DNA from: Octopus sinensis
Lineage: Eukaryota
Direction: 5' to 3'
Length of the DNA: 64,000 bases
NCBI RefSeq assembly: GCF_006345805.1
Contig: NC_043009.1
Location: 39,742,001-39,806,000, forward strand
Shown: in pieces, positions 1,272-45,449 of the stretch
Layout: the number at the start of each line of letters is the position of its first letter
Position numbering within the stretch: the first letter of the stretch is position 1
Program-made: the position numbers and the translations under genes
The notes under the pieces: model-generated
What the model saw: only the letters and a program-made list of their open reading frames with translations
Told to the model about the DNA's origin: nothing
Database searches by the model: none

Positions 1272-1985
1272 CAAACTAAACAACAGGATAAATACATAGA
1301 ATTAAATTAAATATTTCCCATGTATTATCATCATTGGTTTTACATGAGTCTTATCCCTTTTATTGGTAACAAACATCTTGATTTAAAATTTTCCTTTACC
1401 AAATCTCTTTACATTACTTCAAATTAACCTTGATAGTTTTATGACTATACCCACTATGATTTCTGTCGACTCTTTCAACCCCTTTCGTAACAGACACTGC
1501 TCCTTGTTCATTGGCCTTAGATTTTGATATACAGAGATTTGATAAACAAGACTATAAAAATACAGTGACACGCTAGATCTCTAACAATTCTTTTTTCCTG
1601 ATACCTTAGTGGCTTCTAAGCTGAAGTGAAGACAGCATGATCTTTGTCAATCTCATTACCTTCTAGCAGGTTTTAGGTAAAATTATACTAATGTGTCCAT
1701 CTGTTTTAATTTAATATAATTCCATGCATTTATGCAGCTGAGGATTGCCTTGCATTTAAATTGATGTAATGGTTGCATTGTTCAATTAAATGGAGTCGCT
1801 TGAAACAATGGTACTGTATTACCTCTGGATATCCTGTTGCTTATTTTGATTTTAATCACCTTACTTTGAAACTGTATGGATAATACCGTACTAAATTCTG
1901 GTGCCTGAACTTGAGTACCTAATTCATCTGAATTTATATATATATTTGTATGTATATATACATACATATGTATATGTGTATATAT

Positions 1986-2122
1986 GTTTCTTTATTACCC
2001 AAAAGGGGCTAAACATAGAGGGGACAAACAAACGAATTAAGTCGAGAACATCGACCCCAGTGCGTAACTGGCACTTAATTTATCGACCCCGAAAGGATGA
2101 AAGGCAAATTCGACCTCGGCGG
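1986..2122 (-). mobile_element. Nin/Deu-domain SINE, 5'-truncated (family B)
   Basis: Matches 34250-34480 and 45064-45292 (aggggctaaacatagaggggacaaac...cgaccccgaaaggatgaaaggcaaa). Confidence 0.85.
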
Positions 2123-34249: not shown

Positions 34250-34480
34250 ATTTCTTTATTGCCCACAAGGGGCTAAACATAGAGGGGACAAACAAGGACA
34301 GACAAACGGATTAAGTCGATTACATCGACCCCAGTGCGTAACTGGTACTTATTTAATCGACCCCGAAAGGATGAAAGGCAAAGTCGACCTCGGCGGAATT
34401 TGAACTCAGAACGTACCGGCAGTCGAAATACCGCAAAGCATTTCGCCCGGCGTGCTAACGTTTCTGCCAGCTCACCGCCT
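34250..34480 (-). mobile_element. Family B (Nin/Deu-domain) SINE, full length, abutting an older degenerate copy (~34105-34248)
   Basis: Near-identical to 45064-45292. Confidence 0.9.
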
Positions 34481-38070: not shown

Positions 38071-39165
38071 TACACATCTTATTTGTGCTGAAAATGTATG
38101 ACTAAACCCAGATCTATAAATAATAAAGTCTTCTACGTTTTGCATATGACACTACTTATAGACATTCATATCACGATAAACACCAGTCATTGTTAATTAT
38201 TTTAGTTGTTAATAATGTGCTTATAAGGAGCAGTTTCGATATGTACATCATCATTGGATTGTCAAAGTAATTTGAATAATATTATGCCAATTATTGTAAC
38301 GTTTGAATTCTTCAATATTTGCAGTAACGGAGAAGGAAAATGGGAGACATGGAGTTTCAGAAGATTCTACATTTAGAGAAGATAGATATTGCACTAAAGT
38401 CTTTAAAGCGAAGGACAGAAGATGCAATGTAGCAGAGATGAGGTCAGATTTTCCAGCTTGCGAGAAGCACACTTCTTCTGGCCTCCAAGGCGGTTGCTAC
38501 AGTATGGGAGAAAGAACTGCGTATGATATAAATAGACTAGCAAGACAATTTTGGCCATATATTCTAACTGGATACTGAAAATCCTGGCTATTAGTACAAT
38601 AGCATCAACAACAAGTATATATACTCAACGTATCTTGAATAACATGGAAACGAATTCGGCAGATGCACACAAAGAAATGGAAATATTGACACCAGCCTCC
38701 TCCTCAGACGCTTTACGCTTTTTCTGATGCTAACAAATTTAATTGATATTTTAAACATTTGGGTTCGTTTATAAATGCTATGGTAGAACAATCAACCACC
38801 TTTTGTTTTGGGACTGCTTCAAGTTATAAACTGAAAAAGATAAACAACTGGAAACATATCTGTAGATATTTCACAGATTTACGAAAGAAATTAATAGGGA
38901 AAATGCATCAAGGCAATCTTGAGGGTAGAAAAATTACCAAAGAAGGCTAATAACATAAAGATTAAGAAACAAATATGAGATAATTAAATACACCTAATCC
39001 TAATATTGAAATTCTTTGAAATCAATGCATCAGATAATGTTCAACTCACACTTGAAAAAATAGTTAAGAGAAATAAAAACTGAACTAAATGTACGAATTA
39101 AAGTAATAAGTATTAATATCTCAGCTACCCGGGGAATAATTTATAGTTGTAATATTTTAATTTAA

Positions 39166-39388
39166 TATAAAGCAAAGAGCTGGCAGAATGATTAACACGC
39201 CGGGTAAAATACTTAGCGGAATTCCGTCCGTCTTTCTATTCTGATTTCAAATTCCACTGTGGTCAATTTTGCTTCTTTTCCTTTCTGCGTCGATAAGATA
39301 AGAACCTGTTGGATACTGTGTTTGATGTAATCGACTTACCTTCTTAACCACGATCGTCAGCGTTATACCAAAATTGGAAACCAATATA
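39166..39388 (+). mobile_element. Old family B-related SINE (tandem partner of 44976-45449)
   Basis: Shares diagnostic strings with 44976-45449 (aatataaagcaa, gattaacacgccgggtaaaat, cttcttaaccac, gaaaccaatat). Confidence 0.8.
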
Positions 39389-39920
39389 TAATTCTTTACT
39401 ACCCACAAGGGGCTAAACATAGAGGGGACAAACAAGGACAGACAAACGGATTAAATCGATTTCATAGACCCCAGTGCGAAACTGGTACTTTATTTATCGA
39501 CCCAGAAAGGATGAAAGGCAAAGTCGACCTCGGCGGAATTTGAACTCAGAATGTAACGGCAGACGAAATACGAATTTCTTTATTGCCCACCGGGGGCCAA
39601 ACATAGATATGGACAGTACAACTGATGGGATCAGTGAATCGATATGATTTTACATAAATGTGACATCAAAAATAAAATACAATACATAAAAATCGAATGG
39701 AATACACAGTACAAAAACAATACAAATGAAGCGATGATCAAGTTACGCTCCGATCCCACAAGCCCCGATCTACCGCTGATACCTTTTTATTTTTCCTTTT
39801 TTTTTTTTTCCTCGTCTATTCACACGGTTCCTTGCACGCACAACACTCGTGCAACATACTTCCATCTCTTTTGGAACGTACACTCTGACAGACACCTCTT
39901 CTCCAGCCACAGTTTCCTTT

Positions 39921-42900
39921 TCAAATGAAAAGAAAAAAAGGATCGTAAATTGTCCCAGAGATAAAGTTGCCTGTCTTAATTCCTTTTATCCTAGTATTCC
40001 ATACAGCCTCTTTTGCTATTGCTACAACCGTGAGAAAACAATTCTTACCTTCGTTCGTTAGAACTCCCGGTGGGTCAATTTTTATAATTGACTCAGTCGA
40101 CAGCCGTACTCTTCCTTCGCCGGACAACAGATGTTCAGCATAAGCCCACATTTCAGTTATCTCCGGACACTGAACAATAGCGTGAGGGACGGTTTCCCTG
40201 TCCCCCCGCATCTTGGACAGGTCGGCGACTGACGTTTACCATGTCTTGCGAGCTTATCCCAAACGGGCAAGGCACCTCTGTAGCATTGCCAGGTTAAGGA
40301 CTTTTGGAAGTTGTCCAACGTTCTCAACCCGAATGTACGATGAAACAAGCTGTCCAGTTGAATAAATCCGAGACCTAGAGTCGACCCCAGGCCATCGTCG
40401 CATTCAGACTCTACCAACCCACTATATAAAATCCGTGTGGAACCCCCACCGCTGGCGTTGCCCGAGCGCCGGAACAGCAAGAGGGCCTTACGGCACTCTT
40501 TATGCCACTCACTCGACCTCGGTCTACGAGAACACCAGGCTTCCTGTTCGCAAAAACTCTTGAGCTCAGGGAACATTTGTCTGGCCAGCAGCGGAGACCA
40601 CACCCGTTCACTATCCAGGAGAATCCAGAGGTGCCTCAACCTCAACGCATGTCTGCGCATCATTAACCAAGGCATCCCTAAACCTCCATTTAAAGGCTTT
40701 TGACAGCAGACAGAGCGTTTCACAAGTGGCGACCTGCCCTTCCACAAAAAGCGAAAGAGCTGTCTCTCCAACCTGATCAACCACGAATCCGGACAGGGCA
40801 CGACAGTCAGGCGGTAGGTAATGACCGATGCGATAAACACATTGGCCACTTCCGCCCTCCCTTTCAGGGATAGCCACCGCCAAGACCAGGTCTTGACTAC
40901 TGCAGCCACCCTGCTCAATACCTCCGTCCAGTTCTTCTCTATCTGGAGGCCTGGTCCAAACCAGACTCCAGCAACTTAACCGGTCCCTCCGTCCAGCGCC
41001 TAACAACACTGTCTGAAGGCATCGACTTGCCAACCCAGGTGCCGAGCTGCAAGCCGACCGACTTTTCCCGGTTAATCTTTGCTCCTGCTACCTCCTCGTA
41101 AGCCTCAATAGTCTTACCTACTTCACGTAGGCGTGCCACTGTGGTTACACTGATAGTGATATCATCCGCGAAAGCCGTAACAAACTCCTCTAGTCCTGGT
41201 TCTCTCGGGATGCCACTCAACCTTTGCAGTAATGGCTCGAGAGCCATCACATACAAAAGTGGTGAAAGCGGACATCCTTGACGAACCGAGCGTCTGATGC
41301 AGAACGGCTTCGAAAGGAAACCGTTCACCCGAACTATCGAGTCAATGTTGTGGTACAAAGCGATAAACCACCTGAGGAAGCCAAGGCCCAGGCCAAACCG
41401 CGCAAGTACAGTCGCTAGGTATCGATGGTCAACCCTATCAAAAGCTTTAGACTGGTCCAATGCACCAATGCCCCACCTTTGCCAGATTTATTACCAACCT
41501 CTCTATGGTATAGCGAATAAGATGGAGGGTATCCTGAATGGTTCTGCCTGGGATGGCACATGTCTGTGCCTCCCCGACTATACCATTCGCGACACGCGCC
41601 AACCTTTTTGCTAGAACCTTGGCCAAAATCTTCACTTCTGCGTTTAACAGAGTGATGGGCCTGAAATTCTCTAGAACGTCCCCCTTGTCCGGGTCCTTTC
41701 TGACCAACGTCACTACTCCCCGGCGCACAGATCTGGGGATAAACCCATTCTGTTTCCAGTTCGCGTACACGTCAGTCAGTAGTTGCCCGAACAAGTCTGG
41801 CATACATTTATACAGCTCGTACGGAAGACCATCAAGTCCCGGTGACTTACCCGCTTTACAATCGGCCAAAGCCTCCATCACCTCCTCAAGTGTGATTGGC
41901 CCTTCGCAAGACTCCGCATCCGACCCCGAGAGGCACGGCAGCCCGGTAAGAAAGTCCTCGAGGGCTCTCCCACCACCAGGACCGCCGTCACCCCCGAACA
42001 GCTGGGCGAAGTACTCCCGAAAGACCTCACACATTTTCTCGGGTTCGTTTATCAAGACACCATTTTGATTCGTCAAAGACCGAATAGAGGAACTATTTCC
42101 TTGCCGAGCTTCCACCACTCGGGCCCATCCAGCGGCTTTGATTCCTTCACTTCCCATTGCACGTAACTTAGCGCTGGTAATACTTCCCATGTGGTGGGCT
42201 TCAAGATGCTGGTTTAACTCCAGTCTTTTCACCCTCGCTTGGTCTGTATTACCAGTCCTCCAGGCTTCTTCTAGTTCCTTAACTAGACCATCTCCTATTT
42301 TACGTCCCTTCTTAGCTAAACTTATGCTAAACCTAATAGACTCATATTTGATGGCTCTTTTTAGGGCGTACCACCATTTGTTATTAATGATGGTACCTGT
42401 TAATGCCCTCTGTATTAACATCTTGATCCGCTTTCTGTACTCCTCAATCGCCAAAAGGGACGTATTGAGTTTCCAGTAGCCAGATCCCTGTCTATGCAAC
42501 TTATCTACCGTCAGTTACAGGTAACCATCTTGTGGTCACTGTAGCTGACTAGAAAAAACTGTGGACACTCAACTATGGACTTATCTTTTTCTCTAATTAA
42601 AATCCTATCTAGATATGTTCTGGTAGACCCGTCACTATTTGACCACGTCCACTGTGGAGTGTTCGGGTGCTCCAACCTATATGGATCTGCTAGCTGAAAT
42701 TGACTTAGCAGATCCCGAAAGCCTGTGTTACATTTTCTGTTCATGTTCGAGTTGAGCCAACACAATCTGTGTGTGCTGCACATATTGTATTAGAGTCTCC
42801 TAACACTACTAGTGAATGCGACGTGGCTAGGAACTTTCCTAGGCCACGAAAATATTCAGTTTGCGGGCCAATAATGTTTGGTGCATAAATAGCGACCAGC

Positions 42901-43219
42901 CTGATTGTCTTGCCACAACTGAATGTCAAGTCGAGAACGACCAGCCTGCCTTCTGGGTCAGAAAAAACCAACTTTTTCTCGGCTACCCGGTTTCTTTTTA
43001 GTAGGACCAACACCCCACCCCCACCTCCCGCCCGACTCGGAGAAACGTTTTCTCGTAGCCGTTCAGGAGGGGGAGCAGATCTCTTGGCCCCTTCACCCGG
43101 GTTTCCGTTGCAACAATTACATCCAAATTTCTCGACCTGATGTCATTCAGAAAGCGTCCTTGCTTCCAGCTTGACAACAGGCCATGAACATTTAAACAAC
43201 CAATGTGAATAGCCATCAC
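39921..43219 (-). pseudogene. LINE ORF2: AP endonuclease plus reverse transcriptase, frameshifted
   Basis: IGCLNVHGL, AIYAPN, LGDSN, YLDRIL, SDH (APE); KSPGLDGL, FRPITLLN, DQSKAFDRV, RQGCPLSP, FADD (RT); CPRC..ETVPHAIVQC. Confidence 0.95.
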
Positions 43220-43310
43220 TTACCTGTTAATTAGGCTTGTCCGGTGGAGGGGGACCCTCCACCTTTTTTTATCCAGGGTCGGAGGTGGACGGTCTTGGGA
43301 AATAGATTTG

Positions 43311-44775
43311 TCAAAATCCCGTCTCACACCGACACAGAATTATCAGGTGGAGGGGAATCTCCACCTTTTCCTTTTCTCGCGGGATCGGAGCTGGTAATCC
43401 ATGAAATATCGACTTGTTAAAATCTAATCTCAATGAAGATACAGTCTTTCTGTACTTATTTTGTAGAATTCTATAAGTCTTATTTGAGACTTCATATATG
43501 TCGTAATTGATAAATTCCTCTGAAAGGTTATCAATTTTTTTTACAGTCTTTATGAGTTGAATGTCTCTCATGAGCTCAGTATCTTTAGTGTATACGGCTA
43601 TTATGCCTTTTTCTTCTTTTTTCTTCTGGCAGTCTTTTTTGGTCGTTGTTCTGTAGTAGTCGCCGCTCTCGGCTGGGTTGCTGGTTGTATTTTTCTTTTG
43701 TTTGTTGTTTTTTTCTTCTGTTTCTTCTTCTTTATCTTCTTCCTCTTTGTCTTTTTTCTCCTCTTCCTCCTCTTCTTCATTTTCCTTGCAGTTCCTTCGA
43801 ATGTGGCCTAATTGACCACATAAAAAACATCGAGGTTTTCGGCCCTCAACAAACACCACGAGGTTCTCCTCCCCTACCTCAATTGTCTCAGGAATTGTTT
43901 GAATTATTTTAGGGTCCGCTTGAATGAGAAGATTATTGTTTTACCATCCCAGCGTGGTTTTCCGTAGCGGTAGCCTGGAGGAGAGTAATTTTTTCTACCT
44001 CTTTGATTAGGACTGCCGCCAACAACCACATAGGTTCGACCTCTGGCGGGACCCTTGTAATTTTTATTCGCGACGTCCTCATCCCCATATAATAGGGTAT
44101 TAACTCCACGTCGTTCGTTTTCAACGTTTCAACTGAGTTCTTGTGTGCTATTTCTTTATTGGTGAACCTTACTTCCACCGTTCCGAATTTTTTTCCTCTT
44201 CTCAGAAATACTACGTCGCCCAATATTGGCTTTAAGCACTTTTCTATTTTCTCTTCTGACATTCTTTCAATTTTTCTATTTTGTAGACAATATGTTTTGA
44301 AATTATTGTTTTTTGCTTTTCTTCCTGTAATAACTTTAGCGGAGGTTCAATTTTCACACTGTTGTCAGTTATTTCCATCATTTTGCTGTATTTCATAATT
44401 TCGCTTTTATCGTCGACAGTATCTGGGTTCCACCCCCAGCAGCCAACGCAAAACTTTTTTTCCATTTTTTGGTTCTATCTGGATGCTAGGCACATCAATT
44501 ATTCTCTTCGACACAATGCCTTTGTTCTCTGGCAAAGTCGGAAACTCTTCTGGTGAAAGTTCTGACGAGCTCTCAGACACATCTCCAAAAATATCAAATA
44601 TATTATCCTCTCTGCTATTCCTTCTTGTAGCGGGGAAAACCCCTATTTTCTTGTCTGTAGTTGGCTCCTCGCCGGACATGTATTTCCTCCTCTCAACAGG
44701 AGAAACAAGTATTTCTGCTCCAACGGTAGGCTCCATGCTAGACGACATTCTTCCCCCCAAAGGGGGAATGAACAA
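43311..44775 (-). pseudogene. LINE ORF1 (gag-like, RRM-like region plus CCHC zinc knuckle), frameshifted
   Basis: Fragments 44775-44407, 44465-44244, 44262-43933, 43859-43311; CFLCGQLGHIRRNC = CX2CX4HX4C. Confidence 0.85.
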
Positions 44776-44975
44776 CGCGTGCTACCACAAGCACTAAGTG
44801 TTTTCAATTGAAAACTCCAACAGTTAAGTTATTCAACAGTTTAACAAGAAACAACAGTTGTTAACAATATTAACACCACGAAACAGCAATTCTTACTTCA
44901 CGAACACATGTGCGGCAGACGAAATACGGCTACGCATTTCGCCCGGCGTGCTAACATTTCTGCCAGCTCGCCGCC

Positions 44976-45449
44976 AATATAAAGCAACGAGCTAGCAGAA
45001 AGATTAACACGCCGGGTAAAATGCTTAACGGAATTTTGTCCGTCTTTGTATTCTGATTTCAGAGGCGGCGAGCTGGCAGAATCGTTAGCACGCCGGGCGA
45101 AATGCATAGCCGTATTTCGTCTGCCGTTACGTTCTGAGTTCAAATTCCGCCGAGGTCGACTTTGCCTTTCATCCTTTCGGGGTCGATAAATTAAGTACTA
45201 GTTACGCACTGGGGTCGATGTAATTGACTTAATCCGTTTGTCTGTCCTTGTTTGTCCCCTCTATGTTTATCCCCTTGTGGGTAATAAAGAAACATATATT
45301 CTGATTTCAAATTCCACTGTGGCCAACTTTTCTTCTTATCCTTTATGCGTCGATAAAATAAGAACCAGTTGCATACTGTGTTTAATGGAATCGACTTACC
45401 TTCTTAACCACAATCGTCGGCCTTGTGCCAAAATTTGAAACCAATATTT
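44976..45449 (+). mobile_element. Old family B-related SINE interrupted by a young family B SINE
   Basis: Continuous with the 39166-39388 sequence once 45062-45309 is removed. Confidence 0.8.
45062..45296 (+). mobile_element. Young family B (Nin/Deu-domain) SINE
   Basis: 13-bp TSD tattctgatttca (45049-45061, 45297-45309); B-box-like gagttcaaattcc; Deu/Nin-like gtcgactttgcctttcatcctttcggggtcgataaa. Confidence 0.92.

Follow-up and report, generated by a model that had tools for sequence, protein, structure and literature searches.

A young L1-group LINE of Octopus sinensis inserts at one nucleotide in the head of a SINE with a matching 3' tail

How does a long interspersed element (LINE) come to lie inside a short interspersed element (SINE) that ends in the same 3' tail? 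This question is raised by a 64,000-nt stretch of the Octopus sinensis genome (NC_043009.1, positions 39,742,001 to 39,806,000; hereafter the window), in which a full-length minus-strand LINE interrupts a copy of a SINE family termed family B. The head and the 3' part of the host SINE lie on the same strand as the inserted LINE, which is flanked on both sides by the 16-mer cggcagacgaaatacg (Table 1). The window copy is a young member of an L1-group lineage, likely Tx1-like, for which family B and related SINEs serve as targets at a single nucleotide of their head; with a probability of about 0.75, we conclude that the enzymes of this lineage also copy the SINE by way of the shared tail. Sequence comparison suggests that this partnership is likely shared with sister families and mostly older than the window copy.

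The specificity of the LINE was evident throughout the genome. Using the last 227 bp of the element without flank as the query, 356 candidates were obtained, and the best 40, including the window copy, were scored and were all 100% identical over the query. The tail runs into the SINE sequence [C/G]GTATTT in 39 of these 40 copies, and into CGTATT followed by the 5' end of an older relative, stacked at the same site, in the remaining one. Genome-wide, 124 of 139 exact LINE tails continue as T[C/G]GTATTT; among the 12 of 15 exceptions that were viewed, seven show the same site with a change, three enter an older relative at its 5' end, where the sequence is target-like, one is a SINE bearing the LINE tail, and one is off target at GATATT. 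An older subfamily, approximately 85% identical to the young one at its 3' end, was found at this site in every one of the 30 loci viewed (350 candidates, 40 of them scored; a script classed 29, and the 30th has a deletion just past the site). Insertion therefore takes place at TAGC^[C/G]GTATTT, in the orientation of the SINE, in the young and the older subfamily alike. The initial annotation had proposed that the LINE may target a site within family B, and the alternative it named, insertion at random with respect to these SINEs, is contradicted by targeting to one nucleotide across the genome. The same SINE site also holds short, internally deleted relatives that consist of the ORF1 (first open reading frame) region and the 3' end, together with stacked LINE 5' parts (L246, L274, L275 and L139).

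The insertion point coincides with the border between the loop and the 3' arm of a 9-bp inverted repeat in the SINE head, and falls between A-box-like and B-box-like motifs, which were judged by eye from the consensus. Since the LINE separates these promoter-like boxes, the host copy is likely silenced. The variable C/G base defines two SINE subfamilies, with a T.G or a G-C pair at the top of the stem, and is the same upstream and downstream of the insertion in all 38 copies compared. The genome contains 29,680 exact intact targets, so that the few hundred LINEs occupy approximately 1% of them or fewer. The tail sequence GAAAT is complementary to ATTTC of the target (window positions 39573-39581 and 39557-39572), so that the 3' junction forms a small hairpin resembling the target stem. 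No tRNA parent of the SINE head emerged, either as an ARAGORN gene in the window or as an Rfam tRNA match on the uninterrupted copy that begins at position 34250.

The flanking 16-mer had been described at the outset as a perfect 16-bp target-site duplication of a LINE lying in the same orientation inside a family B SINE. Position, orientation and the perfect repeat hold for the window copy, but a plain duplication is not upheld family-wide. The downstream 16-mer departs from its commonest form in 18 of 38 copies, with the departure shared upstream in two, and most downstream departures predate the insertion, because the LINE copies diverge by only 0.6%. In the upstream 16-mer, the base at position 14 (C in 24 copies, T in 14) follows single-nucleotide polymorphisms (SNPs) within the LINE (permutation p = 0.004; L065, which has an internal deletion, was left out), and that at position 1 does not (p = 0.87). 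Copy L047, left out of the 16-mer counts, has a complete upstream 16-mer, yet its downstream sequence is another LINE. Because departures are rarely shared, upstream alleles follow SNPs of the LINE, and L047 shows this arrangement, the pattern indicates that the apparent duplication is largely supplied by the LINE, whose 5' end carries up to 15 nt of the target. This 5' end is kept in 39 of 40 copies, a retention that is unusual for L1-group elements. A staggered cut of approximately 14–16 bp is nevertheless still likely, as the truncated young copy L020 has its own 14-bp duplication at the same site, and L074 bears the same private change at position 13 of its upstream and downstream 16-mers. 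A search for other truncated young copies with which to gauge the true duplication returned one short relative only, leaving L020 as the sole truncated young copy seen. By analogy with R2, annealing of target sequence borne on the RNA, with priming of the second strand, is a likely fit to the 5' junctions of the LINE; Rfam returned no credible ribozyme match at its 5' end.

The encoded proteins place the element among the L1-group LINEs with an apurinic/apyrimidinic-type endonuclease (APE), as ORF1 is followed by an ORF2 with an N-terminal APE, a reverse transcriptase (RT) and a C-terminal zinc domain. In the open copy L072, ORF1 (509 aa) matches Pfam zf-CCHC, and ORF2 (1,133 aa) matches Exo_endo_phos, RVT_1 and zf-RVT; no Pfam match to RNase H was obtained in the L072 proteins. 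Human L1 ORF2p was the closest of the solved structures (E = 2e-64, residues 5-867; best R2 match 2e-20), a contrast limited to L1 versus R2, as other LINE clades were not among the full-length matches. Tx1 is a likely label for the element, and sequence-specific insertion into repeats is a trait typical of Tx1 without defining it. Homologue searches and cluster look-ups returned no named Tx1 protein, the nearest named match being a cuttlefish RT protein (49%). The endonuclease motif, usually GDFN, reads GDSN in 36 of 36 copies read (L072:2852-6253). An open 1,133-aa ORF2 is present in 6 of 38 other copies. The window copy differs from L072 by 11 substitutions and 22 indels (20 deletions; 14 in homopolymers), and its frameshifts probably reflect assembly error more than decay.

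The tails of LINE and SINE were said to be shared, with neither ending in poly(A), and both statements stand. The LINE tail matches that of the 34250 copy at 31 of 34 nt (local score 53, against a maximum of 36 for 1,000 shuffles of the SINE aligned with the whole LINE), a looser match reaches approximately 48 nt, and poly(A) is absent from both. The tail is present in all subfamilies and in distant families, rather than in this copy alone. The GCCC-5nt-GGGC hairpin said to be kept by both elements fared less well: the motif occurs, although its 3' arm reads GGGT in the most frequent SINE tails, with G.U wobble pairing kept, and the fold is no better than that of shuffled sequences. Family 2, one of two sister LINE families considered below, has a shifted AGCC/GGCT stem in its tail (by eye).

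Family B itself fits the traits of a SINE, being short (approximately 231 bp), dispersed and of high copy number, with target duplications and a LINE-like 3' end. Its exact tails number 97,783 genome-wide, and in 28,431 cases (5,283 with a narrower pattern) an exact tail is followed by GGTATTTCG, the site that is used by the LINE; the two totals were counted with slightly different tail patterns. Among 30 consecutive SINE tails, several of them from the same arrays, 11 lie at the site of the LINE, 18 at other places and one at position 17. SINEs are joined to SINEs at this further point of the head (position ~17; AGAAACGTTAG) in L001, L024, L026, L040 and L231, and no LINE family targeting this position was found. 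Dispersed SINEs show duplications of 12–20 bp (median 15) in 39 of 109 junctions, and the upstream, pre-existing duplicate has TA as its third and fourth bases in 28 of 39 cases, compared with a background of 9.1%, and GGTA in 11 of the 39, compared with 0.26%, in the same register as for the LINE. Positions 1-4 were not used in finding the duplications, and a misaligned locus, L220, was kept among the 39. This pattern would fit the same endonuclease, or that of a sister element, used less strictly. No sequencing run listed for the element is on record as RNA. Contigs of four runs cover the LINE and the SINE, and none spans the 3' junction by 31 letters a side.

Several observations count against a simple partnership between this LINE and family B. 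In the sample of 30 SINE tails, 18 (approximately 60%) lie away from the site, and a target-site duplication was found for just 39 of the 109 dispersed junctions. Nearly all junctions of a SINE within a SINE are of the G type (28,431, against no more than 333 of the C type, LINE tails included), like the older subfamily; roughly half of the empty targets are C-type (judged by eye in the first 100 rows), and both forms are used by the young LINE. Folding energy does not favor the tail hairpin over shuffles (z = 0.30 and -0.89), and SINE ends read ATA where LINE ends read ATT. In tail scores against the SINE, some family-3 tails (up to 58.9) do as well as this lineage (60.5 for one favorably chosen older copy, 48.1 for the young subfamily), and homologous tails occur in two other LINE groups with other targets. 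Finally, the young subfamily is far younger than the SINE burst: its copies are 99.4% alike, compared with 89.8% for SINE units (208 units) and 90.5% for the older LINE subfamily. These age figures imply that the young subfamily of the window did not drive the burst, the age of which, as judged from sequence divergence, matches the older subfamily. The two subfamilies are approximately 87% identical in ORF2 and 64–67% in ORF1 (L277 and L278 versus window 43227-44748), a contrast that suggests a swap of the 5' part.

Part of this could be accounted for if the SINE arrays arose by local duplication or from multimeric transcripts, with the GGTA and TATA starts reflecting 3' RNA tags that anneal to chance sites instead of an endonuclease preference. 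We consider this explanation unlikely, although it has some purchase: in 6 of 29 array units the closest match is the adjacent unit, private changes are shared within some arrays, the G-type bias at SINE junctions agrees with it, and 4 of 39 dispersed copies have TATA or GGTA downstream where the upstream sequence deviates (by eye). However, the other 23 of the 29 have their best match elsewhere, and neighbouring units are hardly more alike (0.910) than unrelated ones (0.895) in a comparison that leaves out L104, a duplicate array, and eight LINE tails. In addition, the downstream unit has no B tail in 8 of 29 cases, and four of the six printed run into a different SINE tail. Given this small difference in likeness and the units without a B tail, most arrays look like separate insertions and some like local copies. 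The motif is also found in the upstream duplicate, which existed before insertion. The explanation covers the SINE step only, and can coexist with the preferred reading, in which a site-specific lineage also copies the SINE.

It is quite improbable, in our assessment, that the LINE is only a lodger in family B, with the SINE copied mainly by family 2, family 3 or another LINE and the tail ancestral to the clade. At least two sister groups nevertheless end in homologous tails and are candidate helpers, so that the helper is not unique. Family 2 (ORF2 56% identical) is a young sister LINE in (TATC)n with a tail ending AAAGAAACA; of 1,270 candidates, the best 40 were all 100% identical over 246 bp (L118:2483-2728), and at loci L283-L307 the tail was present in 24 of 25, with 18 continuing as exact ATATCTATC. 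Family 3 (ORF2 62–74% identical) is an older group with 1,972 candidates, the loci L308-L327 of which (L309, L310, L311 and L320 were singled out) have SINE-like tails, with GTCCCCTCT and CCCCTTGTGGG common to family 3 and the SINE. The TATA and AGAAAC classes of SINE junction are also unlike the site of this LINE, and the late appearance of the young subfamily agrees with such a lodger. On the other side, the largest class of SINE junction is the site of the lineage: 53 of 153 junctions lie there, at SINE position 49, and 23 more start with GGTA, in a pool enriched for nested loci, and the position-ordered sample, with its 11 of 30, points the same way. Family 2 instead uses (TATC)n; in family 3, 4 of 12 visible tails lie at SINE position ~35, 14 nt upstream of the studied site, and the rest elsewhere or in unrelated flanks, and none of the 153 junctions was classed at position 35.

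That LINE and SINE spread as one unit, or that a SINE tail was captured by template switch, is almost certainly wrong, even if chimeric tails exist in both directions (L127, a SINE with the exact LINE tail, and L269, a LINE 3' fragment with a SINE-type tail): capture is contradicted by the tail's presence beyond this copy, and hitchhiking is excluded by unique outer flanks, by host SINEs of both subfamilies that are 91.5% alike pairwise, often with their own duplications, against 99.4% for the LINEs (0.59% divergence), by the agreement of the C/G base across the insertion, and by the separate duplication of the 5'-truncated L020 at the same site.

The preferred reading, in which the lineage both targets and likely copies the SINE, can be put as a sequence of steps. 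The APE endonuclease would nick at the site and the RT would prime on the tail, which lacks poly(A). The LINE complementary DNA (cDNA), with its target-bearing 5' end, may then pair with the overhang of the target in the way suggested for R2; such pairing would account for the uniform 5' junctions, the 39 of 40 kept 5' ends and a target rebuilt for stacking. SINE RNA would use the same or sister enzymes less strictly, placing roughly 30% of tails at the same site in other SINEs and the remainder at NRTA-like sites with duplications of about 15 bp, and each dispersed copy would provide a new target for the LINE. Judging from their ages, most SINE copies probably date from the older subfamily, not from that of the window. 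The proposal that this LINE mobilises family B thus holds in a qualified form, favored by same-register SINE insertions and a similar duplication length, with the young subfamily too young for most copies and the helper not unique. The suggested feedback loop, in which the parasite supplies landing pads, is consistent with targeting to position 49, but the LINE likely silences each SINE that it uses; the loop is one that benefits the helper at a small cost to the SINE. More tentatively, and with somewhat less than even confidence, we envisage a closed loop, in which a site-specific LINE lineage made its own target, being strict with its own target-bearing RNA and loose with SINE RNA, which would yield approximately 100,000 harmless landing sites; in that case the RNA would help to determine target choice, and sister LINEs with the same tail but different targets would divide the SINE among them.

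Features of the window are compiled in Table 1. The host SINE stands between two tandem copies of an older SINE relative in opposite orientation (39165-39388 and 44976-45449), the second of which is interrupted by the family B copy at 45063-45293. Further long inverted pairs, 81–97% alike (24479-24763/32320-32604, 18345-18570/19744-19969 and 37097-37411/58882-59237), probably represent further repeat families. The output of a general repeat finder for the window was dominated by microsatellites.

Table 1. Coordinates of the LINE, its host SINE and other family B copies in the window.
Feature	Position	Strand	Remark
Full-length LINE body, young subfamily, 5,340 bp	39573..44912	-	97.6-99.3% identity vs 38 other copies
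ORF1, frameshifted in window copy (open copies: 509 aa, CCHC knuckle)	43227..44748	-	
ORF2 (APE endonuclease, RT, zf-RVT), frameshifted in window copy	39820..43216	-	
LINE 3' tail common to SINE family B (31/34 nt), GCCC-5nt-GGGC, ends AAAGAAATT	39573..39607	-	
Target 16-mer, downstream copy, target-derived	39557..39572	-	
Target 16-mer, upstream copy, in which the target gives the first base and the LINE 5' end largely the later ones	44913..44928	-	
Host SINE head with A-box-like motif (by eye)	44929..44975	-	
Target inverted repeat, 9-bp arms and 4-nt loop, rebuilt at 5' junction	44920..44941	-	sequence; fold of 34380-34480 copy
Host SINE 3' part: B-box-like motif, body, tail	39391..39572	-	
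Uninterrupted family B SINE, reference copy	34250..34480	-	
Second uninterrupted family B SINE, 15-bp duplication, within older SINE relative	45063..45293	+	
Family B SINE 3' fragment	1985..2122	-	

Site-specific LINEs normally rely on host repeats, such as ribosomal DNA, small nuclear RNA genes or microsatellites, or on unrelated transposons. Tx1L of Xenopus, reportedly equipped with a target-specific endonuclease in work of Christensen et al. from 2000, inserts into the DNA transposon Tx1D, which it is not known to mobilise; like the octopus LINE, it is APE-type and nested at a fixed site in another repeat. In crocodilians, Tx1-Mar LINEs likewise insert into a transposon, and their partnership with SINEU-1/2/3 was inferred from shared targets (Kojima 2015, PMC4494074), with 313 of 347 SINEU-3 copies beside Mariner-N4_AMi (PMC4494074). 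In the passages available from that source, the likeness to the octopus system extends to SINEs with the same target preference and to tandem insertions; however, those LINEs go to a DNA transposon unrelated to the SINEs, poly(A) is present in SINEU, and a LINE with the 3' end of SINEU-1 was not found, whereas in octopus the target is the head of the partner SINE itself and the 3' tail is shared and lacks poly(A). Stringent L1-clade pairs are represented by LINE1-1_ZM with maize and sorghum SINEs and by L1-1_CR with SINEX-3_CR (Ohshima 2012, PMC3472496; PMC3747384), and, according to the portion consulted, only 3 of 58 surveyed LINE/SINE pairs are L1-clade (Ohshima 2012, PMC3472496). These pairs similarly combine an L1-group LINE and a SINE with a common 3' end, and they have a small stem-loop, for which the octopus tails hold a candidate motif. 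They come from plants or algae, however, poly(A) ends the algal pair, and the examined text describes no SINE targeting. For R2, which has 28S sequence on the 5' end of its RNA, uniform 5' junctions have been postulated to arise by cDNA annealing to the target (Eickbush et al. 2013, PMC3774820); as far as the excerpt goes, R2 differs from the octopus LINE in its restriction-like endonuclease, ribosomal RNA target and ribozyme like that of hepatitis delta virus.

The literature searched yielded no LINE described as targeting the head of a SINE with which it shares its tail, and Repbase or Dfam entries, subscription papers and supplements could still hold such a description. The accessible parts of PMC4758252, PMC11481361 and PMC8869645 contain no Tx1 partner or SINE-targeting LINE, and "TX1" in the text seen of PMC4176376 is a mutant name only. 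A recent octopus repeat annotation lists, in the sections available, recently active L1-Tx1 families, there without a passage on targets, and attributes 11.6% of one octopus genome to SINEs (PMC13282606). Tx1-type LINEs in transposons and target-sharing SINEs were already known, and within the literature searched a LINE targeting the head of its own likely passenger appears to be new.

If passenger and target are one, a more active LINE would have more safe sites at its disposal. The analysis also points to LINEs that are candidates for having driven a highly abundant SINE, in a lineage in which SINEs make up much of the genome, and extends to an animal the small set of L1-group pairs that have a common tail other than poly(A). 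Moreover, because the tail reaches a fixed site when carried by LINE RNA and mostly other places when carried by SINE RNA, the octopus pair may provide a compact test of the respective shares of endonuclease and RNA in target choice.

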